From assembly GCA_964472415.1 (NCBI GenBank), contig CAYYLC010000001.1:197269-237193 (forward strand): a stretch of 39,925 bases of DNA, written 5' to 3'. Both the position numbers and the translations under genes were made by a program. Under the pieces are notes generated by a model. The model ran no database searches. It was not told the origin of the DNA and worked only from the letters and a program-made list of their open reading frames with translations. Positions 1 to 22,781 of the stretch are shown piece after piece; within the stretch, counting starts at the first letter, position 1; every line of letters starts with the position of its first letter. The DNA comes from an uncultured Gammaproteobacteria bacterium. Its GTDB lineage: Bacteria; Patescibacteriota; Microgenomatia; Levybacterales; GWA1-39-11.

Positions 1-2
1 TT

Positions 3-104
3 CCTAATAAGAAGATATCTTCATTTCTCTGTAGAGTAGAAATTTCTAGTAATATTCCATTTGGGAATCTCCTTTTGGGAAGCTTTAAAAATGAAAAAGA
101 ATAA
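3..104 (+). CDS. 3' end of an upstream gene (partial), possibly another methyltransferase
   Basis: The open frame from the window edge reads PNKKISSFLCRVEISSNIPFGNLLLGSFKNEKE*. Its stop at 102-104 overlaps the ATG at 91 of the next gene, like other coupled genes here. The product guess rests only on the PFG-x-x-L-type tail. Confidence 0.5.
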   Translation, partial: PNKKISSFLCRVEISSNIPFGNLLLGSFKNEKE

Positions 105-759
105 TAAAAAAACTATAGATCTGTGGAAGGAGAATTATGCTCATGACCAGGAAAATCTGTATAAGAATAAATTAATTCAAACGTTGTTTGATTTAGGCCA
201 TAGATATATTGCAAGACAGGGAGAGAGTATAACAGGGACTATTTTAGATATTGGATCAGGGATGGGATATCATTTGAAGTTTGAGAAAATCTCAAATGAG
301 AGAAAGTATATTTGTCTTGATAATGATCCAAAAATGCTTCAGAAAATAAGAAACAAGAAAGTAGAGAAAATAGTAGGAAATTGTTCGAATATTCCACTTA
401 AAGATAAATCTGTGGATCTTGTTATTGCGTCCCATATACTGGAGCATTTGCCTACCTTAAAAAATGATTTGAGTGAGATCAGAAGGGTTCTTAAGGATGA
501 CGGGAGGCTTATCGTTGTGTTACCTTGCGATCCAGGATTTTTATGGAATACTGCAACCCATATGAGTCCTAGTAGGAGGAGATTGAAAAAAATTGGAATA
601 GATTATGATGAAGTTATGAAGCATGAGCATGTAAATACTTTTGAGAAATGCGTTTCCGAATTAGAAGGGAGTTTTAAAATACAGGATCGACAATATTATC
701 CATTCTTAATTCAGAATCATAATTTTAATTTGATTTGTGGTTTTACATTTACGAAATAA
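91..759 (+). CDS. Class I SAM-dependent methyltransferase (Methyltransf_11-like)
   Basis: Motif I ILDIGSGMG, acidic residue in CLDND, and VDLVIASHILEHL / LKDDGRLIV motifs. ATG 91 is preferred over TTG 61, which lies deep inside the upstream CDS. Confidence 0.88.
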   Translation: MKKNNKKTIDLWKENYAHDQENLYKNKLIQTLFDLGHRYIARQGESITGTILDIGSGMGYHLKFEKISNERKYICLDNDPKMLQKIRNKKVEKIVGNCSNIPLKDKSVDLVIASHILEHLPTLKNDLSEIRRVLKDDGRLIVVLPCDPGFLWNTATHMSPSRRRLKKIGIDYDEVMKHEHVNTFEKCVSELEGSFKIQDRQYYPFLIQNHNFNLICGFTFTK

Positions 760-767
760 GAGAATTT

Positions 768-1607
768 ATGAAAAAGTTAGTCCGTTTTTTCGAGATCGAT
801 CTGCAATATTTATCGATTACTACATTGCCTTTTAGTGAGAAGATTAGAAATGTTTTAATTACAGATCTTACTATCTTCCGCAATTTATTTTTTTCGAAAT
901 CAAGTTTTCCTCCAATAAATATAAGCGGTAATATGATATCGTACGATACAAGATACGCAACAAAATCCTTTTTAGTTGGAGCCTATGACTTATATAATGA
1001 AAGTAAGCGTTTTTCGATCTTCGATAACAATGCCGTGGTCGTAGATATTGGATCAAATATTGGGCAGTATTTATTTGCTTTAAAAACATCGGTGCCACAG
1101 GCAAGAGTGTACTCTGTGGAAGCAGACCCGATAATATTTAAATTATTGAAAAAGAATGCGTCAAATCTCAACAAGGTAAAAATTTTTCAAAAAATACTCT
1201 CTAATAAATCAGGATCAATGAATTTTTATACGAGTAAAAAATTCTCAACTTGGTCAACGCTCGTTAAGCCAGAAGATGACGATGCATATACTAAGACTAA
1301 AGTAGAGGTTGTAGATGGCGACAGTTTATTTGAGGACTTAAAACATGTTGATTTGTTAAAGATAGATGTTGAAGGAGCAGAGTGGGAAGTTTTGATGGGA
1401 TTGAAAAAAACTTTGAAGAAGTCAAAGTATATTCTTATCGAAATAAGTATCACTCGAGATAGAGTCGATCCCGGTTCTAGCAAGATAGTGCAGTTTTTGC
1501 TTAAGAATGGGTTTCATATTCATCATATTGGGAGAATTTTTACGAATGGGGTTGGAATGGACCAGTCTGCCGGAAACTTTCTTTTTAAGAGTAATTCAGA
1601 AAAATGA
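768..1607 (+). CDS. FkbM family methyltransferase
   Basis: VVDIGSNIGQY, VYSVEADP and LLKIDVEGAEWEVL are FkbM hallmarks. ATG 768 is preferred because it follows the previous stop. Confidence 0.9.
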   Translation: MKKLVRFFEIDLQYLSITTLPFSEKIRNVLITDLTIFRNLFFSKSSFPPINISGNMISYDTRYATKSFLVGAYDLYNESKRFSIFDNNAVVVDIGSNIGQYLFALKTSVPQARVYSVEADPIIFKLLKKNASNLNKVKIFQKILSNKSGSMNFYTSKKFSTWSTLVKPEDDDAYTKTKVEVVDGDSLFEDLKHVDLLKIDVEGAEWEVLMGLKKTLKKSKYILIEISITRDRVDPGSSKIVQFLLKNGFHIHHIGRIFTNGVGMDQSAGNFLFKSNSEK

Positions 1608-2458
1608 AAATAGAATTTACATTTTTTAACAAGTTTGTATTCTATGCAAGCTATATATACTATAAGGCAGCCTCATTCGTTGAAGTAAAGAGTCCCCGAT
1701 TTAACTTTTTTTTCTTTGAGTTATTGTATTCAGTGAATAAAATTTTAAGAATTCCAGTAAAAATAAATAAACTTTTTTCGATAAGTTATGTCGAGACGAA
1801 ATTCGGAAAATTTCATATAAGGCCAGGAACAGAGGATATAATTTGTGCCTCACCTGCATTCGAAAGAAATGACCTCAATAGACTGATTTCCTTAATAGGA
1901 AAAAAGGCCAATGAGAAAAAGAGAATTTTATTCTTAGATATTGGGGCAGATTTTGGTAGTTATTCCCTTACTTTGGGTTTATGGTTTAAGAACTATAAGA
2001 ATTTCGATATTTTTGCATTCGAGCCTACGGATATAAGTTTTGAATTACTGATGAGGAATATACGGGAAAACAAGCTTGAGAAAAAGATTCGAACATTTAA
2101 TATTGCCTTGGCTGAAAAAAATGATAATTTTAAGATTTATTATGATAACGAGCGACCTGGGTCAAGTTCGATAAAGACAAAAAAAGGAAAAGGAATAGTT
2201 GTAAAAGGAAAGACTATGGATTCTCTAGGTATTAGGTATAATTCTTATGATGCGATCTTTGTAAAGATTGACGTGGAGGGATTTGAGGATAATGTGATAA
2301 AAGGTAGTAAGAAGCTTTTGGAGACTGAAGCAGAGCTTTATCTTTTTATTGAGGATTTTAAGAATACCCGCTTTATTAAACATCTTTCACAGAACATTAT
2401 TTTTGATACAAAAATAACTCCATATAATAGTTGGTGGAGAAATAAAGCAGATATTTAG
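1604..2458 (+). CDS. FkbM family methyltransferase
   Basis: FLDIGADFGSYS, FAFEP and VKIDVEGFE motifs; ATGA overlap with the previous gene. Confidence 0.9.
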   Translation: MKIEFTFFNKFVFYASYIYYKAASFVEVKSPRFNFFFFELLYSVNKILRIPVKINKLFSISYVETKFGKFHIRPGTEDIICASPAFERNDLNRLISLIGKKANEKKRILFLDIGADFGSYSLTLGLWFKNYKNFDIFAFEPTDISFELLMRNIRENKLEKKIRTFNIALAEKNDNFKIYYDNERPGSSSIKTKKGKGIVVKGKTMDSLGIRYNSYDAIFVKIDVEGFEDNVIKGSKKLLETEAELYLFIEDFKNTRFIKHLSQNIIFDTKITPYNSWWRNKADI

Positions 2459-2483
2459 ATACATACATAGAATCATATGAGAT

Positions 2484-3446
2484 ATGAATAGAGAACCTAG
2501 TCTTGATGCCTCTTTTCTAATTCCTACTTTTAACTCTGAGCAATATATTCAGAGGTGCCTTGAGAGTATCTTAAAGCAAACACATTCTAAAAAAAAATAT
2601 GAAGTGCTTGTACTTGATGGTGGATCTATTGATAAGACAATAGATATAGTTTTTGGATTCGAAAGAAAAATGAACCTAAGGATTATTCATAATGAATTAC
2701 GGGATGCAGAGAGCGCGAAAACAAAAGGGATGAAGCTTAGTAGAGGCGAGGTGATTATCTTACTTGATAGTGATAATGAGATAGTTCATAGAGAATGGTT
2801 AAGTTTAGGAGTAATGATAATGGGAAAACACCCTGAATTATGGGGAATTCATTCTCCTTGGAGTTTTAATAGAGATGATATTTCATTAAATAAATATTTT
2901 TCACTTCTTGGAAATTCAGACCCGCTTGCAAAATTACTCGGCTCTACGCCTGAATTGGAGAAGGACTGTAAAAGATATAAGATAGTTAGGATGAGAAAAG
3001 GGACACCTATCATCGGTGCAAATGGGTTTTTTTGGAGAAGATCTATTCTCGATCAAGAATTAAAGAAATTCGAAAAGTTTGAAGAGGTTAATTTTGTTTC
3101 CCATATAATTGCAGAAGGAATGCAGATGTACGCTATTTTAAGTGAGGATTTTGGTGTAAGGCATTATTATTGTAATTCAGTTTATGGATATTTTATGAAG
3201 CGTTTTAAGGTAGCTAATAAATTTATACATAGGAAGAAGAAGCATCAAATCACATGGGTAGATAGAGAGGGGAAAATGAAGCTGCTATTTGCTTTTTTCT
3301 ACTGTGTTACCATAATAGGTCCATTGATAGAATCGCTGATAAGATCATTCTCTTCAAAAAAAATCCAATGGTTTTTTCACCCGTTGATTTCATTTATAAC
3401 AGCGATAATATATTTTTATTCTGCGACAAAAATATTAAGAAAATAA
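2484..3446 (+). CDS. Glycosyltransferase family 2 with C-terminal membrane segment
   Basis: LIPTFNSE, VLDGGSIDKT, DxD motif (LLDSDNE) and a hydrophobic C-terminus. Confidence 0.9.
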   Translation: MNREPSLDASFLIPTFNSEQYIQRCLESILKQTHSKKKYEVLVLDGGSIDKTIDIVFGFERKMNLRIIHNELRDAESAKTKGMKLSRGEVIILLDSDNEIVHREWLSLGVMIMGKHPELWGIHSPWSFNRDDISLNKYFSLLGNSDPLAKLLGSTPELEKDCKRYKIVRMRKGTPIIGANGFFWRRSILDQELKKFEKFEEVNFVSHIIAEGMQMYAILSEDFGVRHYYCNSVYGYFMKRFKVANKFIHRKKKHQITWVDREGKMKLLFAFFYCVTIIGPLIESLIRSFSSKKIQWFFHPLISFITAIIYFYSATKILRK

Positions 3447-3457
3447 TTAGCTATTTT

Positions 3458-4756
3458 ATGGATAAGATTCAAAGCTTGCAATCAAATACAGCGGTTCTTT
3501 TTTTCAAAGTTGTCCGACACGAATTGGTAAGAGGGAGTTTTTGGTTATCGGTTGGAGCAATTGGATCAAGTTTTATTGCTTTTTTAACAAATCTTTTCCT
3601 TGCACGGAACCTATCAATTGCCGAGTATGGAGTATATGCAAGTTTATTGTCATTTTTTACTCTTGCGACAATTCCGGCAAAATCCATAACTACGGTTATC
3701 GTAAGGATTGCAGGTGGATATTTTGCGAAGAAGCAGCAGGTTAAGGCAGCATATCTTTATCGAAAGCTTTTGTTTTCAATTATAATCCTTTCTGTTATTG
3801 TTTTAGCCTTCTTGCTTTTATTTTCTCGCATACTGACAGAATTTCTTCATATTGGTAACCCCCTCTTTGCATCGCTTATCGCAATTGCAGTTACATTTTC
3901 ATACTTGGGTTTAGTAAATCAGTCGTATCTCCTCAGCCAGTTACGATTTTCTTTCATTACTTTTGTTTCCATAGTAAGTTCTTTTGTGAGACTTGTTGTA
4001 GCGATAGCGCTTGTATATGCAGGCTTTAAAATGTTTGGCCCTATTTTTTCTATTGTAACGGCTTCATTCGTTACATTTATACTTAAAGCCTTTCCTTTAG
4101 CGGGATTATTGAGGAGTAAATCAGAGAAACCGATTGAAATCCCGAGAGGAGAAATACTTAAATACGCTTTTCCTTCTGCGATAGCTATCCTTTCTCTTTC
4201 GTCATTCATATCTGTAGACATTATTTTAGCAAGACATTTTTTACCATCTCATGAGGCAGGATTGTATGGCGGAATGTCTCTTATTGGAAAAGTTATTGCA
4301 TACTCGACTACGCCTATTGTTTCTGTTATGTTTCCCATAGTAGTAAAGCGATATGAGGCAAATCAGGAATTTAAAAGAGTGCTATATCTTGCAATTTTTT
4401 TGGTTGCAATGCCAGCATCTATTATTACATTTTTTTATTTTCTTTTCCCAGATTTTACTATTCGTTTATTTCTCAACAATTCTGAATATCTTGATAAGGC
4501 GTCAATTCTTTGGCTATTTGGATTATTTATATTTACTCACATGGTATTAAATGTGTTTGTAAATTTTTTCCTTTCTATAAAAAAAACAAAAGTATTTATA
4601 TTTGTAGCAATCTTTGCTTTACTGCAAATAATGTTCATAAGTATTTTTCATGAAAGTATCTTTCAGATACTCATGATTTCGATTTCTTTAATTTTTATTC
4701 TTCTTTGTTTACTGTTCATATATTTTCTTCTTAGAATTAAGAGGATTGGGGGATGA
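3458..4756 (+). CDS. wzx: Wzx-type oligosaccharide flippase (MOP superfamily)
   Basis: About 12 hydrophobic segments, with LARNLSIAEYGVY and EAGLYGG repeats typical of polysaccharide flippases. ATG 3458 lies just after the previous stop. Confidence 0.85.
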   Translation: MDKIQSLQSNTAVLFFKVVRHELVRGSFWLSVGAIGSSFIAFLTNLFLARNLSIAEYGVYASLLSFFTLATIPAKSITTVIVRIAGGYFAKKQQVKAAYLYRKLLFSIIILSVIVLAFLLLFSRILTEFLHIGNPLFASLIAIAVTFSYLGLVNQSYLLSQLRFSFITFVSIVSSFVRLVVAIALVYAGFKMFGPIFSIVTASFVTFILKAFPLAGLLRSKSEKPIEIPRGEILKYAFPSAIAILSLSSFISVDIILARHFLPSHEAGLYGGMSLIGKVIAYSTTPIVSVMFPIVVKRYEANQEFKRVLYLAIFLVAMPASIITFFYFLFPDFTIRLFLNNSEYLDKASILWLFGLFIFTHMVLNVFVNFFLSIKKTKVFIFVAIFALLQIMFISIFHESIFQILMISISLIFILLCLLFIYFLLRIKRIGG

Positions 4757-4800
4757 TATATGTCCGCTTGTTATTGCTGGCTATTTATAGTGTGATCTAA

Positions 4801-4806
4801 TAAAAT
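4801..4806 (+). promoter_or_regulatory. Candidate sigma70 -10 element (TAAAAT) for the tagD-like module
   Basis: Lies in a 57-bp intergenic gap, 7 nt before ATG 4814. An alternative TG-n-TCTAAT is at 4793-4801. The region is AT-rich, so a chance match is possible. Confidence 0.35.
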
Positions 4807-4813
4807 ATTATTT

Positions 4814-5242
4814 ATGAAAAACGGAAAAAAAATTGGATATACGGCGGGTGCATTTGATCTTTTTCATATTGGGCACCTAAATTTATTGAGAAATGCAAAA
4901 TCTCTTTGTGATGAGCTTATTGTGGGAGTAACAGTTGATGAGCTTTCTCATACTAAGAATAAAAAATTTATTATTCCTTTTCAGGAAAGATTAGAGATTG
5001 TTGAGCATATTAAGTTTGTAGATCGAGTAGTTCCCCAAGAAGACCTTGATAAATATAAGGCTTGGGAAAATTTGCGATATGATATTTTATTTTCTGGAGA
5101 TGATTGGAAAGGAAATTCTCGATGGAAAAAATATGAAGATAAACTCGAGAAAGTTGGAGTTGAGGTTGTGTATTTTCCTTATACTCGGAATACATCCTCT
5201 ACAAAGATAGCCTCGTTAATAGAGGAGCTTGGAGAAATATAG
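4814..5242 (+). CDS. tagD: Glycerol-3-phosphate (polyol-phosphate) cytidylyltransferase, TagD-like
   Basis: GAFDLFHIGHLNLL (HIGH motif), ERLEIVEHIKFVDRV, GDDW and the C-terminal SST motif. Confidence 0.88.
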   Translation: MKNGKKIGYTAGAFDLFHIGHLNLLRNAKSLCDELIVGVTVDELSHTKNKKFIIPFQERLEIVEHIKFVDRVVPQEDLDKYKAWENLRYDILFSGDDWKGNSRWKKYEDKLEKVGVEVVYFPYTRNTSSTKIASLIEELGEI

Positions 5243-5249
5243 AAGAAAT

Positions 5250-6419
5250 ATGCGAAATTTGCAGTTTATAGTAACAATCCTCCTTTTCCCTTTTGGGATA
5301 ATTTCTTACTTGATTCCACTCAGAAAGGATATTTGGATTTTCGGTTCATGGAATGGTCAAAGATATAGCGATAACAGTAAGTATTTGTATGAATATTTAC
5401 ATGCGAATAAAGAGTTGTCTGTACGACCAATATGGCTTACAAAAAATAAGAAAATCTATGATTACCTGAACTCACAACATAAAGAGTCATATATGGCTTA
5501 TTCATTACGAGGGATATACTATAGCATTATTTCAGGTGTTGCCATAATGTCTGTTTCTTGGATCGATTTTCCCTTTACGGCGTTTATTCCAAAAAGGAAG
5601 AAATTGGTTCAACTCTGGCATGGAACGCCTTTAAGAAAACACAATTTGAAAAAAATGCCATTTCGAATTAGATTCTTAAAAACATTCTTATTGGCTTATA
5701 TCGGGAGAGAATATGATTTGGTAACAACAGCAAATAAAAAGAATGCAGACATACATTCTTTAAAGATGCGCTTTAATATACCAAAGGAAAAAATTAAAGT
5801 TACTGGCCAGCCGAGAACTGATATTTTTTTTGATAAAAAAAAGTTTGAGGCGATAGAGTTTCCAAAAAAGAATGCAAAAGTAATCTTATATTTACCAACC
5901 TGGAGGAAATATAGCCATAATTTATTTGACGAAAAATATAAATTCAATTTCAAAAAGATTAACGATTTTCTAAAAAAGAATAATGCATATTTAATAATTA
6001 AAGTTCACAATAATGAATTTAGAAAATATCAAAATGAAATAAAAAAGTATAAGTCTGAAAGTAATATAAAGATGATATTTATTGATGATATTTATCCAAT
6101 CATGCCTACTGTTGATATGTTGATTGCAGACTTTTCTAGTGTTCATTTTGATTTTATGTTAATTGATAAACCATTGATTTATTTGATTCCAGATTTCGAT
6201 AAATATAACAAAGCATGTGGTTTTCATTATGATTATTCTTCTATTACACCAGGGCCAAAGGTTGCTGATTGGAATAAGGCGATGGTAGAAATCAAGAAGG
6301 TCTTGAAAGGAGAAGATGAGTTTAAGGAAATGAGAAGAAAGGTGTGTAAGGAGTTTAATGAATTTCATGATGGTAAAAACTCTAAGAGGACCTATGATGA
6401 AATTAAAAACATTTTGTGA
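5250..6419 (+). CDS. CDP-glycerol:glycerophosphate transferase (TagB/TagF family)
   Basis: QLWHGTPL motif, TGQPRTD, ILYLPTWR, IADFSSVHFDF and TPGP, all conserved in TagB/TagF-like proteins; adjacent to tagD. ATG 5250 is preferred over the TTG at 5229. Confidence 0.88.
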   Translation: MRNLQFIVTILLFPFGIISYLIPLRKDIWIFGSWNGQRYSDNSKYLYEYLHANKELSVRPIWLTKNKKIYDYLNSQHKESYMAYSLRGIYYSIISGVAIMSVSWIDFPFTAFIPKRKKLVQLWHGTPLRKHNLKKMPFRIRFLKTFLLAYIGREYDLVTTANKKNADIHSLKMRFNIPKEKIKVTGQPRTDIFFDKKKFEAIEFPKKNAKVILYLPTWRKYSHNLFDEKYKFNFKKINDFLKKNNAYLIIKVHNNEFRKYQNEIKKYKSESNIKMIFIDDIYPIMPTVDMLIADFSSVHFDFMLIDKPLIYLIPDFDKYNKACGFHYDYSSITPGPKVADWNKAMVEIKKVLKGEDEFKEMRRKVCKEFNEFHDGKNSKRTYDEIKNIL

Positions 6420-6422
6420 TTG

Positions 6423-8549
6423 ATGAAAGTTGTAAATTTTTTTAAGAAAAACTATTTTGTAATTCTGCTTATTTGTGTGGCGGTAGTATCCCATCAGGAA
6501 TGGTTCAATTTAAATTCTATCCTTACTTCTGGAGATTGGAGATTTTGGCCAACTGAGACGATGAAGGAGTATATTAGCTCATATGGGACATGGATAGGAG
6601 ATAGGAATATCGGCAAGGCGAACATTCAGATATATTTCAATATTTTCCATTCAATTTGGTCTGTATTTACGAATTGGGGCTTTACAACAGAGCAGATCTC
6701 TAAGCTAACAGTGTTTATTCCGGTAGCGATTCTTGGATTTATTTCACCTTATTTTTTAATGAAGAAATTTACGAGTGATAAATTGATCTCTTTCATCTCT
6801 GCTCTTTTTTACGGTTCAACTACATACTTTCTTATTCTTCAAAGTAGTCATTTAACCATCGCATTTGTTTATAGTTTGACACCATTTATTTTCTTAGCAT
6901 TTATACAAGCCCTGGAGAAGAATAGGCTATTGAACTGGATATTTTTCTCCATAATTTATTCTATTGGAATTGGGTATGAGCTTCGGATAATGTATATTGT
7001 TACTTTTGTATTATTCTCTTACTTTTTATTTTTTCACAGCTCTGAGCTAAGAAAATATTTAAAAAATATTATTGCTACAGGATTTCTTATATTTTTTCTT
7101 AATAGCTATTGGATAGTTGCAACATTGTCTGGAGGAGCATCTGATCGCATTGAGCAGGTTGCGGGGAGAGGATTATTTGGAGATTTTTTAACCGACATTT
7201 TACGGTCATTTACGCTATCTCATTGGTCGTGGACTGGTGCTTATAAAAATAGAGAATTCGAGCCTCAATCGATATTATTATATTTCTGGATACTTCCTAT
7301 TTTTGTTTTTTCACTCTTCCTTATAAAGAAAAATAAATATTTAAAACAAATGGTCTTCTATTTAATGATTCTTCTTGTAGGGATTTTTCTTGTTAAGCAA
7401 TCCGCGCCTCCGTTTCAGTCATCTTACCAGATTCTCTATGATTATTTTCCTGGATTCAAATTGTTCAGAGAATCTTCAAAAATGTATCTTCTTATTGCAC
7501 TTGCCTATACTGTACTTCTTGGATATGGTCTGAGTTTGTTAAAGATTAAAAATTATTTACTTTTTAAAATACTAGCGGGAGTTTTTGTAGTATTGGCTTT
7601 TGTTAATCTAATTCCTCTTATTAATAAAGACTTTCGAACTCTCTTCATAGCACGAGAACGTCCGATTGAATACAGTAATTATGAAAATTATATTTTATTA
7701 GCGGAAGATTCATATAGGACCCTGTGGATCCCGCGCAATTCGCAGTGGTCTTATTATGGTGTTAAGAATCCACGGATGCATATGATTCAGATGAAAGACG
7801 GTGGTTGGAAGGAGCTTTTTAAACAAATTGATACTAGTAGGTCTGAGGGTCAAGAAGTTATGGATTTTTTCAATCAGGATTTTACCCAGAGACTGTTAAG
7901 TATAAGCTCAGTTCGATTTATTGCAATCCCATTAATGGATCATACAGATTTGGAAAATAAATTATTCCTTAATTCCGGAACAGACAGAGAGTTTTATGTT
8001 CAAAGAATAGACAAGATTCCGTATTTGAAAAAGGTAGATATAGGAATTGGAGATATAGATATATATGAGAATCCTGATTATCGACCTCGTGTTTATTATA
8101 CGAGATCTCCAGAGACAATTTATGAGGGTATAGATTATTTTGAGGTGCAGAATATACGATATACTGCCGCAGAAAAAAGCTTTGAAATAAAGAATATTTC
8201 TGGACCAATATACATAAATTATTCTGAAGCATATAGTGATAGTTGGAAATTGAGAGTCGGTCCTAAAGATCTGTTTGCCTCAATTTTTAAATCTGACTAT
8301 TTTCTTCCTGATAAGAACCATATAAAAAATGATGCTGGTTTAAATACATTTTATCTTAATATTGATGAGGTTTGCGATACGTATGAATGTGATAAGAACC
8401 AAGACGGAACTTATAATATAAAAGCTACGGTATATTTTAAATCGCAATCGTTTTTCTATGTGGGTGTAGGAATTACTGTAGTAACTATTGCAGTATTATC
8501 ATTTACTATAATTTATGTATTGCTTAAAAATAAATATGGAAAAGAATAG
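6423..8549 (+). CDS. Multi-pass membrane protein, probable GT-C glycosyltransferase (YfhO / DUF3367-AftD-like)
   Basis: N-terminal TM followed by a loop with GDW, about 11 TM helices and an FRESSKM motif. A large extracellular C-terminal region containing YSEAYSDSWKL precedes a final TM. The family call is from motif recall only. Confidence 0.6.
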   Translation: MKVVNFFKKNYFVILLICVAVVSHQEWFNLNSILTSGDWRFWPTETMKEYISSYGTWIGDRNIGKANIQIYFNIFHSIWSVFTNWGFTTEQISKLTVFIPVAILGFISPYFLMKKFTSDKLISFISALFYGSTTYFLILQSSHLTIAFVYSLTPFIFLAFIQALEKNRLLNWIFFSIIYSIGIGYELRIMYIVTFVLFSYFLFFHSSELRKYLKNIIATGFLIFFLNSYWIVATLSGGASDRIEQVAGRGLFGDFLTDILRSFTLSHWSWTGAYKNREFEPQSILLYFWILPIFVFSLFLIKKNKYLKQMVFYLMILLVGIFLVKQSAPPFQSSYQILYDYFPGFKLFRESSKMYLLIALAYTVLLGYGLSLLKIKNYLLFKILAGVFVVLAFVNLIPLINKDFRTLFIARERPIEYSNYENYILLAEDSYRTLWIPRNSQWSYYGVKNPRMHMIQMKDGGWKELFKQIDTSRSEGQEVMDFFNQDFTQRLLSISSVRFIAIPLMDHTDLENKLFLNSGTDREFYVQRIDKIPYLKKVDIGIGDIDIYENPDYRPRVYYTRSPETIYEGIDYFEVQNIRYTAAEKSFEIKNISGPIYINYSEAYSDSWKLRVGPKDLFASIFKSDYFLPDKNHIKNDAGLNTFYLNIDEVCDTYECDKNQDGTYNIKATVYFKSQSFFYVGVGITVVTIAVLSFTIIYVLLKNKYGKE

Positions 8550-9597
8550 TTTTAAAAAAATAATCTTTGGAGTACTCCTTTTTTTTGTATGGATTCTCCT
8601 AACTGCTTGGTATGTGGTGATCTATGATCAAAGTTTTTTTATAACTTTTCAAGCTCATCAAGAGGAAAATTTTATAGATTTGAGTCATGACAGGCTCTTA
8701 AAAGGAGAGAAAATCTCCGGAGAATTCAAAGCAGAGAGAGATAATTTGGGAATAGTTTCATTAAGGTTTAAAAAATTTCTTCGCATTCCCTATGATCAAG
8801 AAGATACATTGATTTTTAGAATTAAGGAAAAAGATTCTTCTCAATGGTATTACGAAAATGAGTATAGGAGTGGATTAACATATGACGTTCCTTTTTTACC
8901 TTTTGGTTTTCCGTTAATTCCTGACTCTAAAGGGAAAATATATTATTTTGAACTCGAGTCATTGAGGGGAAATTCCGTAAATGGTGTGGTGTTGAGTGAG
9001 AGGGAGCCAATCTTGGTAACCAAGTATGAAGCAGATAGGGGTTTGGTATTTAGTAATCTTAATGAATTGTTCAATTTTTTGAATGAAAAATTTCTTAGAG
9101 CACTTTTAACAATTGATATTTTTTATTCATCAGTAATTTTTGCATTACCTTTAGTTTTCTATTTTTTACATTTTACCTCATTTGGAAAAAGGGTAATGGA
9201 ATATGTGCCGAAATTTATCATTTCAAGGCTCGAAGCTTTTGGTAAGAAATTGTTTGGTAGAAAATATAAACAAACTATAGTAATTCTGTCATCATTCTTT
9301 TATCACTGGATGTTAATCATTCTAATAGTTTTACTGTTTTTTGATATATTTTTCCTCCAAATATTAAATGATTTGTTGTACATTTTGGTAATATTTTTAT
9401 GGATCATAATATTAAAGATCTATCGGAAGGATAGAGTGCAATCTTTCAGATTGGGAATTGTATTATTGATAATTTCTCCAATGGCTCTTGCATTTAGTAA
9501 TGTTGATGTAGCTGAAAAAGCTGCAGTTTGGGCATTTGCGTTTTTTATTGCAGGCTTAATTCAGGCATTTTTAGAAATAAGAAAGAAGCGGAAATAG
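8536..9597 (+). CDS. Hypothetical membrane protein: extracellular beta-rich domain plus about 5 C-terminal TM helices
   Basis: One N-terminal TM, a ~160-aa soluble domain (FGFPLIPDSKGKIYYFELES), then a hydrophobic C-terminus; overlaps the previous stop. Confidence 0.75.
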   Translation: MEKNSFKKIIFGVLLFFVWILLTAWYVVIYDQSFFITFQAHQEENFIDLSHDRLLKGEKISGEFKAERDNLGIVSLRFKKFLRIPYDQEDTLIFRIKEKDSSQWYYENEYRSGLTYDVPFLPFGFPLIPDSKGKIYYFELESLRGNSVNGVVLSEREPILVTKYEADRGLVFSNLNELFNFLNEKFLRALLTIDIFYSSVIFALPLVFYFLHFTSFGKRVMEYVPKFIISRLEAFGKKLFGRKYKQTIVILSSFFYHWMLIILIVLLFFDIFFLQILNDLLYILVIFLWIIILKIYRKDRVQSFRLGIVLLIISPMALAFSNVDVAEKAAVWAFAFFIAGLIQAFLEIRKKRK

Positions 9598-9618
9598 TGT
9601 CTTTTTGTTTTTATTCCG

Positions 9619-9624
9619 TATAAT
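9619..9624 (+). promoter_or_regulatory. Candidate -10 element (TATAAT)
   Basis: Perfect consensus in a 36-bp intergenic gap, 9 nt before ATG 9634; the -35 match is weak. Confidence 0.5.
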
Positions 9625-9633
9625 AAGTTTAAT

Positions 9634-10164
9634 ATGACCATTGGAATTGATATCAGTCAGCTTGCATATAGAAATACTGGTGTAGCAAATTATTTACTGA
9701 GATTATTAAAGGAATTAGTTCATCAAGATAATAATACGTATGTTTTATTTTTTTCTTCATTAAGGCGTGATATTGACCTGCAGGAGTTAGGTTTAGATAG
9801 GGAGAATGTTATACTCAAAAAATTTAAGCTTCCTCCCGTAATTCTTGATACACTTTGGAATAAGATGCATATAATGCCGATAGAAAATTTTATTGGAAAT
9901 ATTGATCTTTTTCTTACTTCTGATTGGACAGAGCCACCAGTAAAAAAAGCAAAAAAGGCGACTATTATTTATGACATGATAGTGTATAAACATCCGGAAG
10001 AAACGAATGAGAGGATTGTTAAAACACAAAAAAGAAAATTGAAGTGGGTAAAAAAGGAATCAGATATTATTTTTTGTATTTCTAAATCTACGAAAAATGA
10101 TGCGATTCAGATTTTAAACCTTGATAAAAATAAAGTACGGGTAATATATCCCGGAGTTGTATGA
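9634..10164 (+). CDS. Stand-alone N-terminal domain of a GT4 glycosyltransferase
   Basis: IGIDISQ..TGVANY, TIIYDMI and IFCISKSTKND. It ends at VRVIYPGV, the end of the GT-B N-domain, with no C-terminal nucleotide-sugar-binding domain. Confidence 0.8.
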   Translation: MTIGIDISQLAYRNTGVANYLLRLLKELVHQDNNTYVLFFSSLRRDIDLQELGLDRENVILKKFKLPPVILDTLWNKMHIMPIENFIGNIDLFLTSDWTEPPVKKAKKATIIYDMIVYKHPEETNERIVKTQKRKLKWVKKESDIIFCISKSTKNDAIQILNLDKNKVRVIYPGVV

Positions 10165-11282
10165 AGATAGGAATAAATGGATTTGAGGCTGTTATGCCAC
10201 GTTTTGGATATGATAAGAACGGATTTCCGAATCGTGTTGGGAGTTCAGAATTTTGTTTTCAGCTTCTCAAGCAATTCGAAAGAACTGACCTTAAAAACGA
10301 ATACCTTATTTTTCTTCCCGATAAGCCAAGTGCTGATATGCCGGAAGAGACAGATAGGTGGAGATATAAAATTATTCCAAATAGAAAGATGTGGACGATT
10401 TTCGGTCTTTCAAAAGAGCTCGTGATGAATCATGGGCTGGATGTGTTTTTTTCTCCCACGCATTATGGCCCTATTTATACGCCATGTCCGCAGGTAATTT
10501 CCATCCTAGACGTTTCCTATAAGCATTTTCCAGAAATGTTTCCCAAAAAGGATTTAATAAAATTAAAATTTTGGGGGAGATATTCTATAAATAGCTCTCA
10601 TAAGATCGTTACAATAAGCGAAAGTTCGAAGAATGATATAATAAATGAATACAAAGTTCCAGCGAGTAAAATTGAGGTTGTGCATCTGGGAATAAAAGAT
10701 ATTTCTCAAGCAAAAATGAATAGAAAAGATCTTGTACAAAAGTATGATTTAGATGATCCATATCTGTTATTCGTTGGAACATTACAGCCTCGAAAAAACA
10801 TCGCTCGCCTTATAGAAGCTTTTTCAAAAATTGAAAAAAAGGGTGTAGATTTGATTATCGTGGGAAGAAAAGGATGGGATTTCAAGAAAATTCTCGAAGC
10901 ACCAAAAAAATATCAAGTGAAAAATAGAGTGAGATTTTTGGAATTAGTAACTGATAAGGAATTGCCAGCACTTTATGAAGGAGCAACAGCATTTGTACTG
11001 CCAAGCTTGTATGAAGGATTCGGATTGCCTATTTTAGAGGCAATGCGATATGGATGCCCGGTCCTTACGAGTAGTATTTCATCACTTCCTGAAGCTGGTG
11101 GAGACGCAGCAGTATACTTTGACCCACAAGATCCAAATGATATTGCGGAAAAAATAAATGCCGTGTTAAAAAGTGAGAAACTGAGAGATGAGATGAGAAA
11201 AAAAGGCTATGAGCAGGTGAAGAGGTTTTCCTGGAAAAAAAGTGCAAAAGAAGTAATACAGATTTTTGAATCATTATTATGA
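10161..11282 (+). CDS. Glycosyltransferase family 4 (GT-B)
   Basis: [14 protein letters not shown] and [15 protein letters not shown] (EX7E) motifs. Confidence 0.93.
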
Positions 11283-11830
11283 ACCGGATAGAAAGACGAA
11301 TAAGAACAATACTTCTGGAATTTAGCAATTTGCTGCTAAAGTTTGTGGGCATTGTTCCTACCCATTTCTTTCGGAGATTTTTTTATAGACTATTTGGTAT
11401 GAAAATTGGTAAGGGGTCAACACTTCATACCGGTGCAGTTTTTTATAACATAAAGAATATTTCTATAGGTAGCGATACTATAATTGGTGAGAATGTAATT
11501 CTGGATGGGAGAGAGAAGATTGTGATAGGAAATCATGTCGACTTTGCGTCAGAAGTAATGATTTATAATTCTCAGCATGACATTAATAGTGATGATTTCC
11601 ATGCAGTCTCTGCTCCTGTTATTGTTAAGGACTATGTGTTTATAGGGCCTCGGGCAATTATTCTTCCAGGAGTGACTGTCGGAAAGGGCTCAGTGGTTGC
11701 AGCGGGTGCGGTCGTTACGAAGGATGTAGCAGATTTTACAATAGTTGCGGGTGTGCCTGCAAAAGTGATCGGAGAGCGAAAAAATAAAAACCCAAAATAT
11801 AAATTAGGACGAGCAGCATGGTTCCGCTAG
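11279..11830 (+). CDS. Hexapeptide-repeat (LbH) acyltransferase, WcaF/maltose-acetyltransferase-like
   Basis: Repeats of (I/V)GxxTxI, plus [31 protein letters not shown] and GVPAKVI. Confidence 0.9.
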
Positions 11831-11835
11831 AAGGT

Positions 11836-12696
11836 ATGCCAAAAATTTCCCTCATAATTCTTACCTATAATTCATCGCGATATATCTCCGATCTTCTAAC
11901 TGGACTTATGAACAGATTCGATAAAGAACTAGTAAATAAAGCCCTGGAGATTTTAGTTGCGGATAATGCTTCTCAGGATGAGACAGTAAAACTTGCAAAA
12001 AAATTTAAAAAAATTCAGGTAATAGAAAACGGGGGGAATTATGGATTTGCAAAAGGAAATAATTTAGCAGTTAAAAAAGCTACAGGAGAATATTTATTAT
12101 TTATAAATCCAGACGCGAAATTTATCGATGGAGATATTTTTGAGCTTTTGAAATCATTCAAAGATGAAAAAGTGGGGATTGTGGGAGGAGAGATTATGAA
12201 TTGGCAAAAAGAAAAAGAATTATCGTGTGGTAAATTTTATAAATTTTTTAGTACAACATTACTTACGCTTGGATTGGAAGAATTTTTTCGTGTGCGATTT
12301 TCTCCGGAAAAGGAACAGTTTGTAGATTTTGTGAGTGGGGGATTTTTAATGATTCGAAGAGAGGTTTTTGAGAAGCTTAACGGATTTGATGAAAATTATT
12401 TCATGTACATTGAGGATTCAGATCTATGTTTTCGCGCAAAAAAAATAGGATATAAAACAAAATTTTCCCCTAAAGCAACTATTCAGCACATGGGGCAAGG
12501 GAGTTCCAATAGGACATTTGCAATCATAAATATTTATAAAGGATTAGTATATTTTAATAAAAAGCATTCAAATTATTTAGAATACTTGTTTGTGAGATTT
12601 GCCCTAAAAACTAAGGCATTATTGCTTGTAATACTGGGAAAAATAATGAATAATAGATACCTGGTGGATACCTATTCTGTGGCTATGAAATTATGA
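11836..12696 (+). CDS. Glycosyltransferase family 2 (WbbL/rhamnosyltransferase-like)
   Basis: IILTYNS, ADNASQD, NYGFAKGNN, LFINPD and FDENYFMYIEDSDLC. ATG 11836 is preferred. Confidence 0.9.
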   Translation: MPKISLIILTYNSSRYISDLLTGLMNRFDKELVNKALEILVADNASQDETVKLAKKFKKIQVIENGGNYGFAKGNNLAVKKATGEYLLFINPDAKFIDGDIFELLKSFKDEKVGIVGGEIMNWQKEKELSCGKFYKFFSTTLLTLGLEEFFRVRFSPEKEQFVDFVSGGFLMIRREVFEKLNGFDENYFMYIEDSDLCFRAKKIGYKTKFSPKATIQHMGQGSSNRTFAIINIYKGLVYFNKKHSNYLEYLFVRFALKTKALLLVILGKIMNNRYLVDTYSVAMKL

Positions 12697-15600
12697 AAAA
12701 ATATTTTTCTTGGATCTTGGAACATGCCCTCTTTATCGTAACGCTTTTTCTCCTTGCATTTATCCCCTTGTATCCAAAAATCCCATTAGTTGATATTCAG
12801 AATACATGGGTATATATTCGTGCTGAGGATTTTGTTGTTTTTTTAGTTTTGATATTATGGACGATTTATCTTATTCGAAATAAGATAACATTGAGAACTC
12901 CCCTTACTCTTCCGATATTCGGATTCTGGATAGTAGGTGCTGTAGCAACGATTCATGGAATAATACTCCTTTTCCCAAATCTCGCAAATGTATTTCCGAA
13001 CGTTGCATTCCTGAGTTTTCTCAGAAATATTGAGTATATTAGTGTATTTTTTGTGGCATTTTCAGCCATGCGTGATAAAAAATTCCTAAAAATTATTATT
13101 TTTGTTCTTGTGCTAACACTTCTTGCGATTATTTTCTATGGGTTTGGTCAGAGATTTTTAGGTTTTCCCGCCTTTCTTACCATGAATGAGGAGTTTGCTA
13201 AAGGAGTTCCGATCCAGCTCTCAGAGCTTTCTCGTGTCCCCTCAACTTTTGCGGGACATTATGATTTGGCTGCATATCTCGTTTTGATAATTCCCATTGT
13301 AGTGAGTCTTATTTTTGGATTTAAAAATTGGTTTATAAAAATATTTTTAGGTATTACAACCATATTAGGGTTTGTGTTGCTTTTTATGACAGTTTCACGA
13401 GTTTCATTCTTTGTCCTCATTTTGTCACTTCTTATTGTCCTTTTCTTCCAGAAGAGAAAATTAGTTTTGTTTTCTGTGCCAGTTCTCGTAATTTTGGGAT
13501 TTGCATTTCTTATTTTACGACCTACGACACTTCTAGAACGATTTAGCGATACAGTGAATGAGGTAAATGTGCTTGTTAATGCAGAAACTGGACAAGCAAT
13601 AGCACATGTTGAATATGTAAGCCCTGATTATTTTAATGAGAAGATTATCGCACAGCAAGATATTGGTACTACTCAGGAGTTGAGCGATGTTCTAAATGGA
13701 GTATTGCAAGACGATACTGCCGCTACTCCTTCTGCTTTTTTACCTGCGAGACTTTTCCCTCAAAAAATCCCACTTGTTATCGATAGAAATGTTTCGACTG
13801 GGGAGGAGCTTATTCAAGGAACTGGATATATAAATCTTTCACTTTCACCAGTTGATAAAAAACTAGGGAACTTTTTCTATGAAATTACTGATGAGAAAAA
13901 CTCTAACATCTCTGCAGATGTTCTTATACTACATGGAGACTTTTTGGTAAAACGGGCAGCAGCATATGATCTCTCGTTTACGACTAGGTTTCAAGGGGGA
14001 TGGCCGAATGCTTTGGAATCATTTGAGAGAAATGTGTTTTTAGGGAGCGGATATGGAACGGTGACACTGGCTGTGGATAATAATTATCTCAGAATACTGG
14101 GGGAAATCGGCATATTAGGACTTCTGTCCTATGCAGGAATATTTGTAACACTTGGGATTTATATTGTGAGAGTTCTTCCGAAGACCGATTCAAGCCTTCT
14201 TAAAAGCTTCGTGATTGGGTATGCTGCAGGAGTTATAGGGATTGCCTTGAACGCAACACTTATCGATGTATTTGCAGCCTCAAAAGTCGCATTTGTATTG
14301 TGGCTTTTGACTGGAGTAGTGGTTGGGTTACTCTCTTTGTATCAAGTAAGAGAGTTAGATTTTAAAGCAGAGTTGAGAAACTTTACACTATCGCCTGTTG
14401 CGATAATTTTGTATATTTTTATTCTTACATTCGTTATTTATATTCCAATACTTAATAATTATTTTATTGGGGATGATTTTACGTGGTTTCGGTGGGCGGT
14501 AGATTGCACGTATGGAGGACTACAGTCCTGCCCAAATATTTTTGAACGAATAGCAGACTATTTTACATCAGCTAATGGATTTTTCTATAGACCTGGCACA
14601 AAAACATTCTTCCTTGTCGGATATTCAGTGTTTTGGTTAAATCAAGTAGTTTTTCATTTAATATCCATAATGCTCCACGCAATTGTCGTTGCGTTATTTT
14701 TTCTACTTTCTCGGAAAGTTTTGAAGAGTAATTTGCTTGCAGCACTTGGGGGCATTCTTTTTATTGTGATGAGCGGATATGCAGAAGTGGTGTTCTGGAT
14801 ATCCGGAATTGGACACCTTTTTAATGCAGTATTTGTAATGTTTTCGATACTGCTTTTTTCTGCATGGAACAACTCAAGAAAAGTTTATTATCTACTCGGT
14901 AGCATTGTTTCTATATTCTTAGCTACATTTTTCCATGAATTAGGAGTAGTGGCGCCTCTCCTTATTATTATATATTCCTTATTTGTGACAAAGCGATTTA
15001 CTATAAAAAGATTGCATAAGAAAATAGATATATTTGTATTGTTTATTCCTGTCGTGCTGTATCTTTTGATGCGTTATATGGCAAAAAGTCATTGGAGTGG
15101 AGGAGATTATAGCTACGATATTTTGATGCTACCGTTTAATGTAGTGGGAAATATTTTTGGTTATGTGATGATAGTAATTTTAGGGCCCATGTCTTTGTCC
15201 TTCTACCAGGTTATTCGTACCACTCTGAGAGAAAATATTTTTGTTGCAGGAATCTTGGCTGTGATTTTCATAGGTATCTTGTTCATTCTCTACCAGTATT
15301 TGTGGAAGAAGATTAAGCAAGATGATATTAAGATAATCCTTTTTGGAATTGCATTTTTTATTATCTCCCTACTTCCATTTATCGCTTTGGGAAACATAGC
15401 CTCTCGATATAGTTATCTTGCTTCCATTGGAATTGTAATTATTATGGTGTTTATTCTTGGTAAATTATTGAGAATTCTGATGAGGTATGGTGCAGGGATC
15501 GCCTATGGCGGGATGCTTGTTCTGCTTTCTATCTTTACGCTATTTCATATTATCCAGATTCAGCAGCTCCATGGGGATTGGAAAACAGCGGGGGATAAAG

Positions 15601-15935
15601 TTGAGCAATTCCTTATCTCCATGGATTCACTTTATAGAGATTCTTGGGCAAGTGCTGAGACAGAATTGCATTTTGTAAATGTACCGATAAAGCACAATGA
15701 TGCTTGGGTGTTTCCAGTAGGTGTTGAAGATGCGCTATGGCTTACATTCCAGAATGATGATTTGAAAGTGGTGAATCATCAAAGTATTGATGATGCAGTG
15801 GATTTAGTTGGGCTGTTTCCACATAAATCTATTTTAGTTTTTGAAGAAAATGGTCATATAGAAGAGATAAGAGTTTTTAAAAGTATTTATACAGGAGACA
15901 TAGAATACGAGTTTGTAAATACAGAAAGAGAATAG
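12693..15935 (+). CDS. Fusion protein: O-antigen ligase/Wzy-like domain plus TMTC-like GT-C glycosyltransferase domain
   Basis: N-half: RVPSTFAGHYDLAAYL, TVSR and R....W..A...LGSGYG...DNNYLRILGEIG. C-half: FIGDDF, FYRP, FHLISIMLH and EVVFWISG. About 20 or more TM segments in one uninterrupted 1080-aa frame. Confidence 0.75.
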   Translation: MKKYFSWILEHALFIVTLFLLAFIPLYPKIPLVDIQNTWVYIRAEDFVVFLVLILWTIYLIRNKITLRTPLTLPIFGFWIVGAVATIHGIILLFPNLANVFPNVAFLSFLRNIEYISVFFVAFSAMRDKKFLKIIIFVLVLTLLAIIFYGFGQRFLGFPAFLTMNEEFAKGVPIQLSELSRVPSTFAGHYDLAAYLVLIIPIVVSLIFGFKNWFIKIFLGITTILGFVLLFMTVSRVSFFVLILSLLIVLFFQKRKLVLFSVPVLVILGFAFLILRPTTLLERFSDTVNEVNVLVNAETGQAIAHVEYVSPDYFNEKIIAQQDIGTTQELSDVLNGVLQDDTAATPSAFLPARLFPQKIPLVIDRNVSTGEELIQGTGYINLSLSPVDKKLGNFFYEITDEKNSNISADVLILHGDFLVKRAAAYDLSFTTRFQGGWPNALESFERNVFLGSGYGTVTLAVDNNYLRILGEIGILGLLSYAGIFVTLGIYIVRVLPKTDSSLLKSFVIGYAAGVIGIALNATLIDVFAASKVAFVLWLLTGVVVGLLSLYQVRELDFKAELRNFTLSPVAIILYIFILTFVIYIPILNNYFIGDDFTWFRWAVDCTYGGLQSCPNIFERIADYFTSANGFFYRPGTKTFFLVGYSVFWLNQVVFHLISIMLHAIVVALFFLLSRKVLKSNLLAALGGILFIVMSGYAEVVFWISGIGHLFNAVFVMFSILLFSAWNNSRKVYYLLGSIVSIFLATFFHELGVVAPLLIIIYSLFVTKRFTIKRLHKKIDIFVLFIPVVLYLLMRYMAKSHWSGGDYSYDILMLPFNVVGNIFGYVMIVILGPMSLSFYQVIRTTLRENIFVAGILAVIFIGILFILYQYLWKKIKQDDIKIILFGIAFFIISLLPFIALGNIASRYSYLASIGIVIIMVFILGKLLRILMRYGAGIAYGGMLVLLSIFTLFHIIQIQQLHGDWKTAGDKVEQFLISMDSLYRDSWASAETELHFVNVPIKHNDAWVFPVGVEDALWLTFQNDDLKVVNHQSIDDAVDLVGLFPHKSILVFEENGHIEEIRVFKSIYTGDIEYEFVNTERE

Positions 15936-15953
15936 TTTAAAGCATTTTATTAC

Positions 15954-21634: not shown

Positions 21635-21643
21635 TCAAAAAAT

Positions 21644-22726: not shown

Positions 22727-22781
22727 GGTTATGATTTCAGCCTATTTATATTTTCAAGCACAGTATTTTATTTACTAGATT

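Follow-up and report, generated by a model that had tools for sequence, protein, structure and literature searches.

Two gene pairs, TagD/TagF-like and GT-C/membrane partner, in the variable arm of a surface-glycan locus of a Microgenomatia bacterium

We analyzed four adjacent genes at 4814-9597 of a 39,925-nucleotide stretch of contig CAYYLC010000001.1 (the window), from an uncultured bacterium of the class Microgenomatia. Its genome (G000) comprises 14 contigs with a total of 934 kb, and markers indicate that it is 100% complete. The first gene (4814-5242; 142 amino acids) encodes a TagD-like cytidylyltransferase, probably a CTP:glycerol-3-phosphate cytidylyltransferase. The second (5229-6419; 396 amino acids; PF04464) encodes a protein like the CDP-glycerol glycerophosphotransferases TagF and TarF, with an N-terminal hydrophobic anchor. 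The third open reading frame (6420-8549; 709 amino acids, or 708 from the ATG at 6423, which is the start in the public protein) encodes a GT-C glycosyltransferase that resembles YfhO and AftD, as judged from a fold model. The fourth (8515-9597; 360 amino acids) encodes a membrane partner, which we call MP360, whose structure model has an outer domain like a carbohydrate-binding module (CBM). All four are on the + strand, and neighboring genes either overlap or are no more than 7 nucleotides apart, whatever starts are chosen: the second reading frame begins with TTG and could start instead at the ATG at 5250, and the fourth could start at the ATG at 8536. An earlier note on this DNA, made from the sequence alone, had described the four genes as tightly coupled, which is correct. 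It had also proposed that they form a self-contained, plug-in cassette. We will argue that they are probably two separable two-gene modules, one for decorating a glycan with glycerol-phosphate and one for a separate GT-C step, which lie in the hypervariable, low-GC left arm of a Wzx-type surface-glycan locus.

The TagF-like protein matches PF04464 (Glyphos_transf) with 201.2 bits, as compared to a gathering threshold of 22.1 bits, and the alignment covers positions 6-365 of the 367 positions in the profile. It aligns to residues 355-709 of TagF from Staphylococcus epidermidis (3L7I). We took the catalytic histidines of that enzyme, H444 and H584, from the entries for its mutants (3L7J and 3L7M). 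H131 (in WHGTP) falls on H444, and H260 (in KVH) falls on H584 after a shift of one column. Both histidines are invariant in 24 members of the family, so the note's assignment of this protein, and its check for the catalytic histidines, held up. The scores for the more specific equivalog models are far under their cut-offs (101.7 bits vs. 550 for TarF, 69.9 vs. 1000 for TarL, and 27.1 vs. 500 for TarB). The protein has one hydrophobic segment, at its N terminus, and this is the sole PF04464 gene in the genome. As far as is known, every characterised PF04464 enzyme with both histidines takes CDP-glycerol or CDP-ribitol as its donor.

TagF-like genes have other neighbors elsewhere in the class. 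In two genomes (G112 and G185), they adjoin genes for AsnB-like amidotransferases. In two others (G153, L034:4610-9495; and G270, L035:4984-9917), the genes upstream encode a 439-amino-acid fusion of a CTP-transferase and a phosphoenolpyruvate (PEP) mutase, a decarboxylase that depends on thiamine pyrophosphate, and an iron-type alcohol dehydrogenase. By annotation, this set would activate a phosphonate (of the 2-hydroxyethylphosphonate type), and some TagF-like enzymes from the candidate phyla radiation (CPR) may transfer phosphonates.

TagD makes CDP-glycerol, and TagB and TagF transfer glycerol-phosphate in wall teichoic acids and in some capsules. The TagD-like protein belongs to PF01467 (CTP_transf_like; 76.9 bits). 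Its top model in NCBIfam is TIGR01518 (TagD), at 96.2 bits, ahead of rfaE_dom_II at 76.8 bits, and its top solved relative is TagD from Bacillus subtilis (1COZ; 74.6 bits with phmmer). The HxGH motif is kept, with H18-I-G-H21 aligned to H14-W-G-H17 of 1COZ. In the phmmer alignment, K48 and K50 fall on Lys44 and Lys46 of the B. subtilis enzyme, two residues with a role in TagD. With these two top matches, the motif, and both lysines, the identification of this gene as tagD-like stands.

What does the TagD-like enzyme act on? A close orthologue (62% identical) is present in just 1 of 300 sampled genomes from the class, G185, where it is one gene away from the tagF-like gene. (One genome in the sample, G068, is unpublished; it was used for the counts only, and nothing specific is claimed from it.) Protein P0232 is a natural fusion of TagD to TagF, with matches to our TagD-like and TagF-like proteins alike. 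Indirect hints that the enzyme may be specific for sn-glycerol-3-phosphate are its partnership with a TagF-like gene, P0232, and a gpsA-like gene next to a related tagF in genome G302 (see below).

The model of the GT-C (pLDDT 86.6) has about 10 transmembrane (TM) helices, with an outer domain at about residues 400-672 before the last TM helix; the sequence has 11 hydrophobic segments. YfhO also has a large outer domain before its last TM helix (PMC5836110). In a Foldseek search, the first match was to AftD (6W98; E = 5.9e-8, TM-score 0.50 by query), at 11% sequence identity, followed by STT3, AglB, PglB, DPY19, AftA, and ArnT. Neighbors of the GT-C in the Atlas carry the families GT-C_AftD, YfhO, and PTPS_related. 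The fold match and the Atlas neighbors bear out the earlier description of this protein as a YfhO/AftD-like GT-C. D38 (in GDW), which the model places in the first outer loop after TM1, is invariant in 25 homologues. When we scanned the protein and these 25 homologues against Pfam, nothing was above the cut-offs, and neither YfhO (PF09586) nor GT-C_AftD (PF11847) was matched; there was only a weak match to PMT_2 for the protein itself, and a sub-threshold one in 4 of the 25. This GT-C family is without a Pfam model of its own. No WWDYG-type oligosaccharyltransferase motif is visible in its sequence.

The model of MP360 (pLDDT 93.3) has one TM helix, an extracytoplasmic beta-sandwich (residues 40-175), and a C-terminal helical membrane domain. 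In the VIA comparison, the beta-sandwich matched a CBM in 7ZVO (Z = 9.4, root-mean-square deviation 3.0, 113 residues aligned), as well as CBM15, CBM35, and CBM6. Twelve chains had Z of 8 or above, and these were mostly CBMs or CBM-like sugar-binding domains, with Z values that are middling. Foldseek matched the beta-sandwich to CBM6 (E = 3.8e-4). The invariant residues W111, G131, F132, and S149 are candidates for binding sugar. MP360 belongs to no Pfam family, and the Atlas search returned unnamed clusters only. The MP360 family is large, with 713 representatives at E ≤ 1e-30 and 2,409 at E ≤ 0.001.

The two proteins also turn up in other arrangements. In four loci (L014, L015, L017, and L019), the GT-C/MP360 pair is tandemly duplicated, and one genome has four matches to MP360 domains within 14 kb (G026:C1:265900-279536). 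In some genomes, the part of MP360 with the TM helix and the CBM forms the N terminus of a much longer protein, of up to about 1,340 amino acids (for example, L016:8974-12984). We considered whether homologues of the GT-C of about 1,200 amino acids that contain CBM_4_9 are fusions of the GT-C to MP360, and we rejected this idea: the best match to MP360 had E = 0.002 over 70 residues. As these proteins have no real similarity to MP360, they are not Rosetta-stone evidence.

If the four genes were a cassette, then they should be found together in other genomes. Using an alignment of 15 MP360 sequences, we found 12 related loci, labelled Levyibacteriota or Gottesmanbacteria, and we compared them to all of the proteins in the window. 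In 11 of the 12 loci, a GT-C homologue is directly upstream of, and overlaps, the MP360 homologue. None of the 12 loci has a homologue of tagD or tagF within 9 kb. Across the class, members of the MP360 family are present in 63 of the 300 sampled genomes and TagF-like genes in just 8. Seven of these 8 genomes have tagF without the GT-C/MP360 pair; only one (G288) has a match to MP360, and that is on another contig. Among 244 other species genomes from the order, 2 have a TagF-like gene; in this order-wide search, both congeners (G338 and G339) lack it. A scan of metagenomes with TagF found only two distant loci (33% and 25% identity), which have neither tagD nor the GT-C pair. Since most copies of the GT-C/partner pair occur without tagD or tagF, their function seems to be independent of glycerol-phosphate. 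In the genomes we searched, the four genes are not found together as a set, which the earlier note had itself named as grounds for refutation, so the proposal of a self-contained cassette is not supported. Instead, by their distribution, tagD and tagF look like a rare accessory pair beside a widespread GT-C/partner pair, and a few close relatives, at most, have the two pairs linked.

The nearest thing to an exception is genome G302, which belongs to the same family but another genus, and is the only species genome that repeats the order tagF-GT-C-partner. The genes of this stretch are at L065:628-3142 (- strand) and L064:1-3849, and tagF is split between the two contig ends. The GT-C is 31% identical to ours and the partner is 42% identical, and the conserved glycan block follows later. 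No tagD is found upstream of tagF in G302. In its place are a GpsA-like NAD-dependent glycerol-3-phosphate dehydrogenase and a fusion of an NTP-transferase/IspD-like domain to a HAD phosphatase. As annotated, this set would be a non-orthologous replacement for tagD that brings its own supply of glycerol-phosphate. (It may match the gtp1-3 route to CDP-2-glycerol in pneumococci.) Because G302 replaces tagD by a dehydrogenase for glycerol-3-phosphate and a nucleotidyltransferase-HAD protein, it gives independent support for a glycerol-phosphate donor. Together with the TagD-TagF fusion, it upholds the earlier suggestion that glycerol-phosphate is the likely group to be added. A closer relative probably exists in Logan: the homologues of TagF (73% identity), the GT-C (60%), and the partner (48%) each have a longest contig of 277,234 bp. 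This contig may repeat the order tagF-GT-C-partner.

The location of the four genes also fits with variable modules. To the right of the 36-bp gap that follows MP360 (9598-9633), beginning with a gene for a GT4 N-domain, the proteins are 60-77% identical in the two congeners. To the left of this gap, gene content differs between the congeners, and the GT-C and the partner are just 25% and 34% identical. Given this break, we conclude that the four genes sit in the hypervariable, serotype-like arm of a conserved locus. The GC content is 0.319 in the left arm (1-9597), 0.355 in the conserved glycan block, and 0.383 in the genome, and the low-GC arm matches the part in which the congeners differ. 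The conserved block recurs in 11 loci (L009, L010, L012-L014, L019, L020, L064, and L066-L068). In other genomes, the left arm contains methyltransferases, acetyltransferases, C-methyltransferases, or extra glycosyltransferases.

The earlier note took the gaps on either side of the four genes as the ends of a cassette. The 57-bp gap (4757-4813) and the 36-bp gap are indeed among the few sizeable ones, as the glycan locus has only two others of at least 30 bp (55 bp at 22727-22781 and 33 bp at 23421-23453). But the 57-bp gap is inside the variable region, and the 36-bp gap is the border between the variable arm and the conserved block rather than a cassette end. A candidate -10 hexamer had been reported in each gap, and these are present: TATTAT at 4806-4811, which is part of a weak promoter-like sequence (TTTATA-16-TATTAT, 9 of 12 positions), and a perfect TATAAT at 9620-9625. 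However, positions 3000-12000 contain 37 promoter-like matches, as compared to 40.8 ± 7.7 in shuffled sequences. A scan for terminators that was run together with the promoter scan found nothing above chance either. Because such matches arise at the chance frequency in DNA with 31% GC, the -10 candidates carry no weight.

The rest of the window is consistent with a locus for a surface glycan. Positions 1-25418 are a single-strand glycan locus that opens with three methyltransferases, a GT2 glycosyltransferase, and a Wzx-type flippase, followed by the four genes and the conserved core. The GT2 (2484-3446, + strand; Glycos_transf_2, 77.8 bits) has a hydrophobic segment near its C terminus (residues 265-283) and is part of the variable arm. 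Its nearest solved relatives are of the TarS type, and are neither GtrB nor DPMS; a 52% identical copy adjoins wzx in the congener G338. The flippase gene (3458-4756, + strand; Polysacc_synt 44.8 bits, Polysacc_synt_3 43.9 bits) is open from 3368, with a likely start at the ATG at 3458, and encodes ten hydrophobic segments. It is the sole flippase-like gene of the glycan locus, and it lies just upstream of the tagD-like gene. The conserved core (9634-25418, + strand; Pfam assignments) comprises, in order, the GT4 N-domain gene, a GT4, an acetyltransferase, a GT2, a 1080-amino-acid membrane protein, a PMT_2 GT-C, and then GT4, GT2, GT4, and GT4, with a ManC-like protein, a Bac_transf initiating transferase, and a DUF4012 protein at its right end. 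We considered whether the first of these genes (9634-10164; 176 amino acids) is a broken or split GT4. We rejected this, as a separate homologue of 177-191 amino acids (47-71% identity) precedes the full GT4 in the same 11 loci that have the conserved block. Beyond the 3' end of the glycan locus are recO, glyS, and the dcw cluster. Also in the window, GlmU appears as two overlapping reading frames at 35428-36763, with the NTP_transferase part at 35428-36180 and the hexapeptide acetyltransferase part at 36146-36763; the gene may truly be split, or there may be a frameshift.

As the genome is complete by markers, we asked what else it encodes for making and exporting a glycerol-phosphate polymer. 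The window lacks TagA, TagO, and TagGH, as previously stated; its sole PF00953 gene is mraY, in the dcw cluster. The genome-wide check that had been suggested for tagA, tagO, and tagGH gave a mixed answer. On one hand, there is a homologue of TagA/WecG (161 bits; G000:C4:63640-64113, L006:7581-8342, - strand). It stands alone, adjoining mreB and near bacA and an IS200-like transposase gene. There is also a second Glycos_transf_4 gene (PF00953; WecA/TagO-like), on contig C2. On the other hand, no gene of the TagG type (ABC2_membrane, PF01061) was found anywhere in the genome, while a control matched in 14 of 14 genomes. This result agrees with the view that export is by Wzx rather than by TagGH. 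Of 60 other sampled genomes from the class, 54 have a member of the TagA/WecG family, as compared to about 3% for TagF-like genes, so TagA is a core gene and not a companion of TagF. A step of the WecG/TagA type thus seems to belong to the core biology of the envelope in Microgenomatia. The second Glycos_transf_4 gene is in a cluster (G000:C2:69646-74965, L007:6646-11965, - strand) with a UbiA prenyltransferase, a 121-amino-acid reading frame, a PMT_2 GT-C, and a 499-amino-acid protein. By analogy, this cluster recalls pathways of the decaprenyl-phosphoribose/arabinan type or for polyprenyl-linked sugars. The genome also has an LCP gene.

The GT-C would need a donor, and the genome seems able to provide one. 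None of the three GT2 proteins in the window resembles GtrB or DPMS, so none looks like a donor synthase of the CsbB/GtrB/DPMS type. About 84 kb away is a gene (G000:C1:113936-115105, L069:754-1923) for a polyprenyl-phosphate glycosyltransferase of the DPMS type that also has a GtrA-like TM domain. It has 146.5 bits to DPMS from Pyrococcus (5MLZ) and is followed by a reading frame of over 500 amino acids. A second gene with a GtrA domain is elsewhere in the genome. With the DPMS-type gene present, donors for GT-C enzymes could be made, and, from its homology, this gene is a likely donor synthase for the genome's many GT-Cs.

Overall, we think that the two pairs of genes probably have separate roles. 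In the first module, the TagD-like enzyme would make CDP-glycerol from CTP and scavenged glycerol-phosphate. The TagF-like enzyme, anchored in the membrane, would add glycerol-phosphate to a polyprenyl-linked glycan unit at the cytoplasmic face, and the neighboring Wzx would flip the unit with its glycerol-phosphate. Most likely, one or a few glycerol-phosphate residues are added per unit, which would give an anionic, teichoic-acid-like heteroglycan. Because there is no TagGH, there is just one PF04464 gene, and the surroundings are those of a heteroglycan locus, we infer that a short side group is likelier than a chain of poly(glycerol-phosphate). The second module would act outside the membrane: there, the GT-C most likely uses a polyprenyl-phosphate donor to add a sugar, or a glycan unit, to the surface polymer, while the CBM-like domain of MP360 most likely holds the acceptor. 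We favor a decorating transferase like YfhO or GacL (PMC5836110, PMC8035078), given that the pair is variable, is duplicated in tandem in some loci, and lies in the variable arm. That the GT-C decorates the polymer outside the membrane was also the view of the earlier note, and this part of its proposal is plausible, but we found no tie from the GT-C to glycerol-phosphate.

More speculatively, the GT-C and the CBM-bearing MP360 might be a previously undescribed, two-protein machine for extracytoplasmic transfer in the Microgenomatia, with MP360 presenting the acceptor. Fast-diverging alleles of the two genes would then set surface-glycan "serotypes," and in this organism the glycan would carry glycerol-phosphate that was scavenged from the host. 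This extension is tentative, and we would sooner bet against it than for it.

Several observations weigh against the two-module interpretation. First, the score of the TagD-like protein (96.2 bits) is under the equivalog cut-off for TIGR01518 (165.4 bits), and the C-terminal motif RTEGISTT of TagD reads YTRNTSST, with the Thr and the Ser-Thr kept and the Arg displaced by two positions. Given the low score and the altered motif, the substrate could be another phospho-alcohol. Second, because a phosphonate-activating set lies beside it in G153 and G270, the TagF-like family does not seem to be restricted to glycerol-phosphate. Third, GpsA, GlpK, PlsY, and a glycerol-1-phosphate dehydrogenase (Fe-ADH_2) were not found in this complete genome. 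The organism seems to be unable to make glycerol-phosphate de novo, to judge from its gene content, yet it encodes a TagD-like enzyme. With GpsA, GlpK, and glycerol-1-phosphate dehydrogenase all absent, glycerol-phosphate is probably scavenged; a weak match to GDPD (G000:C3:66612-66941) is the only lead as to its source. Fourth, we recognised no synthase for polyprenyl-phosphate sugars among the four genes. Finally, tagF is directly upstream of the GT-C/partner pair in both G000 and G302, as it probably is in the Logan contig, and there may be some functional link between them within this family of organisms.

Alternatively, the GT-C and MP360 could be a polymerase and its co-polymerase, or a ligase, for the unit that is flipped by Wzx. 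The right block would then make a conserved backbone, and the left arm a variable side polymer to be joined to it. There is a precedent in the lactococcal GT-C WpsH, with its partner WpsI (a proposed polymerase), or WpsJ (PMC10821137). A locus with one conserved half and one variable half would make sense under this hypothesis, and the GT-C alleles are as divergent as Wzy or Wzx are between serotypes (25-34% identity between congeners). The overlap of the two genes suggests that the proteins form a complex, and the fold matches include the en-bloc transferases STT3, AglB, and PglB. But tandem duplicates of the pair fit better with decorating enzymes, the GT-C has no visible oligosaccharyltransferase motif, and the partner resembles no known chain-length regulator. 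We consider this alternative to be a serious rival, if an unlikely one.

A single functional cassette, in which a YfhO-like GT-C and its partner glycosylate the glycerol-phosphate, or a poly(glycerol-phosphate) chain, outside the membrane, might seem the natural explanation for four tightly coupled genes. YfhO is needed for the glycosylation of teichoic acids in Bacillus and in Listeria (PMC5836110), and our GT-C has the layout of YfhO and has Atlas neighbors in that family. The repeated order in G302, and perhaps in the Logan contig, points the same way. Yet 11 of the 12 related loci have the GT-C/partner pair without tagD or tagF, and 7 of the 8 tagF-positive genomes from the class lack the partner. 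The GT-C and the partner in G302, at 31% and 42% identity, are no closer to ours than those from the tagF-less loci L009-L013 (31-35% for the GT-C and 38-50% for the partner). Also, as G000 and G302 come from the same family, they may just have inherited the order that they share, and the cassette has no csbB-like GT2. A single cassette therefore seems quite doubtful to us, and we prefer the interpretation as two modules.

It is also conceivable that the cytidylyltransferase activates phosphoethanolamine, phosphocholine, or a phosphonate, and that the TagF-like enzyme transfers that group. Besides the low score, the altered motif, the lack of genes for making glycerol-phosphate, and the phosphonate genes that precede tagF-like genes in G153 and G270, the human ethanolamine-phosphate cytidylyltransferase scores nearly as well overall as TagD does (70.2 vs. 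74.6 bits). However, that score is the sum over two domains (38.5 + 29.6 bits), and TagD is the top match in both NCBIfam and PDB. The window has no PEP mutase, kinase, or other gene for a precursor, and the related tagF in G302 follows a glycerol-3-phosphate dehydrogenase. The known donors of the characterised two-histidine enzymes are also those for glycerol-phosphate or ribitol-phosphate. We view another substrate as improbable, and we retain glycerol-phosphate as the group that the first module most likely adds.

Lastly, a classical pathway for wall teichoic acid, in which the TagF-like enzyme would both start and extend a poly(glycerol-phosphate) chain on a linkage unit made by TagO and TagA from elsewhere in the genome and LCP would attach the product, could draw on the TagA/WecG homologue, the second Glycos_transf_4 gene, and the LCP gene, but it is very improbable: no TagG-type gene was found genome-wide; a single PF04464 gene implies that there is no separate primase (TagB) and polymerase (TagF); TagA is so much more widespread than TagF that it must serve something else; tagD and tagF are embedded in a heteroglycan locus, next to its glycosyltransferases, its methyltransferases, and Wzx; and the TagO-like gene sits in the cluster with UbiA and a GT-C.

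CPR bacteria (Patescibacteria) live attached to other microbes, and to our knowledge, almost nothing is known about their surface chemistry. The locus predicts that some Microgenomatia could put anionic glycerol-phosphate on a Wzx-exported glycan by using enzymes of the TagD/TagF type. The apparent inability to make glycerol-phosphate would tie the decoration of the surface to uptake from the host. A conserved core with a hypervariable, low-GC arm is familiar from loci for O-antigens, capsules, and rhamnose polysaccharides, and it suggests diversification that is antigenic or driven by phages. The GT-C and its CBM-bearing partner are a sizeable family without annotation that is present in about a fifth of the sampled genomes. 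The chemistry is of a known kind that is little documented in this lineage, so the value of these results lies in annotation and in building hypotheses.

The closest precedent for the first module is in the Wzx/Wzy-dependent capsule loci of Streptococcus pneumoniae, where gct and a glycerol phosphotransferase are found only in the serotypes whose capsules contain glycerol-phosphate (PMC1391919). As in those loci, a small cytidylyltransferase and a glycerol-phosphate transferase are encoded among glycosyltransferases and Wzx, and they are present in only some variants of an otherwise related locus. In both cases, glycerol-phosphate would be added to the lipid-linked repeat unit before it is flipped, as we infer for this organism. 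Unlike the pneumococcus, our bacterium is a CPR organism without recognisable genes for making glycerol-phosphate, and its transferase is at most about 35% identical to any named protein. TagD and TagF of Bacillus and Staphylococcus (TarD and TarF; 1COZ and 3L7I) belong to the same two families, with the HxGH motif, the lysines, and both histidines in common. In contrast to their wall teichoic acid systems, we found neither a division of labor between TagB and TagF nor TagGH, and the context is that of Wzx.

For the second module, the multi-component CsbB/GtcA/YfhO systems, which glycosylate teichoic acids outside the membrane (PMC5836110, PMC8035078), also use a GT-C that crosses the membrane many times, carries an acidic residue in its first outer loop, and has a large outer domain ahead of its last TM helix, and their GT-C is also encoded in a locus for a cell-envelope glycopolymer. 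They differ in that our GT-C does not match the Pfam model for YfhO, has no CsbB-type GT2 or GtcA next to it, and goes with a CBM-bearing membrane protein, for which the Firmicute systems have no counterpart; most copies of our GT-C are unlinked to teichoic-type genes. The bipartite loci for rhamnose polysaccharides in lactococci and enterococci (PMC10821137, PMC7188991) are similar in having a conserved half and a hypervariable half, with Wzx and a GT-C in the variable half, a partner membrane protein beside the GT-C, and decorations that contain phosphate. Our locus has no rhamnan genes, its partner is unrelated to WpsI as far as was tested, and the roles of the CPR proteins are predicted. 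Finally, in AftD of mycobacteria (6W98), as in our pair, a carbohydrate-binding beta-sandwich accompanies the GT-C module. In AftD, the CBMs are part of the same 1,400-residue chain, while in this bacterium the CBM-like domain is encoded by a separate, overlapping gene.

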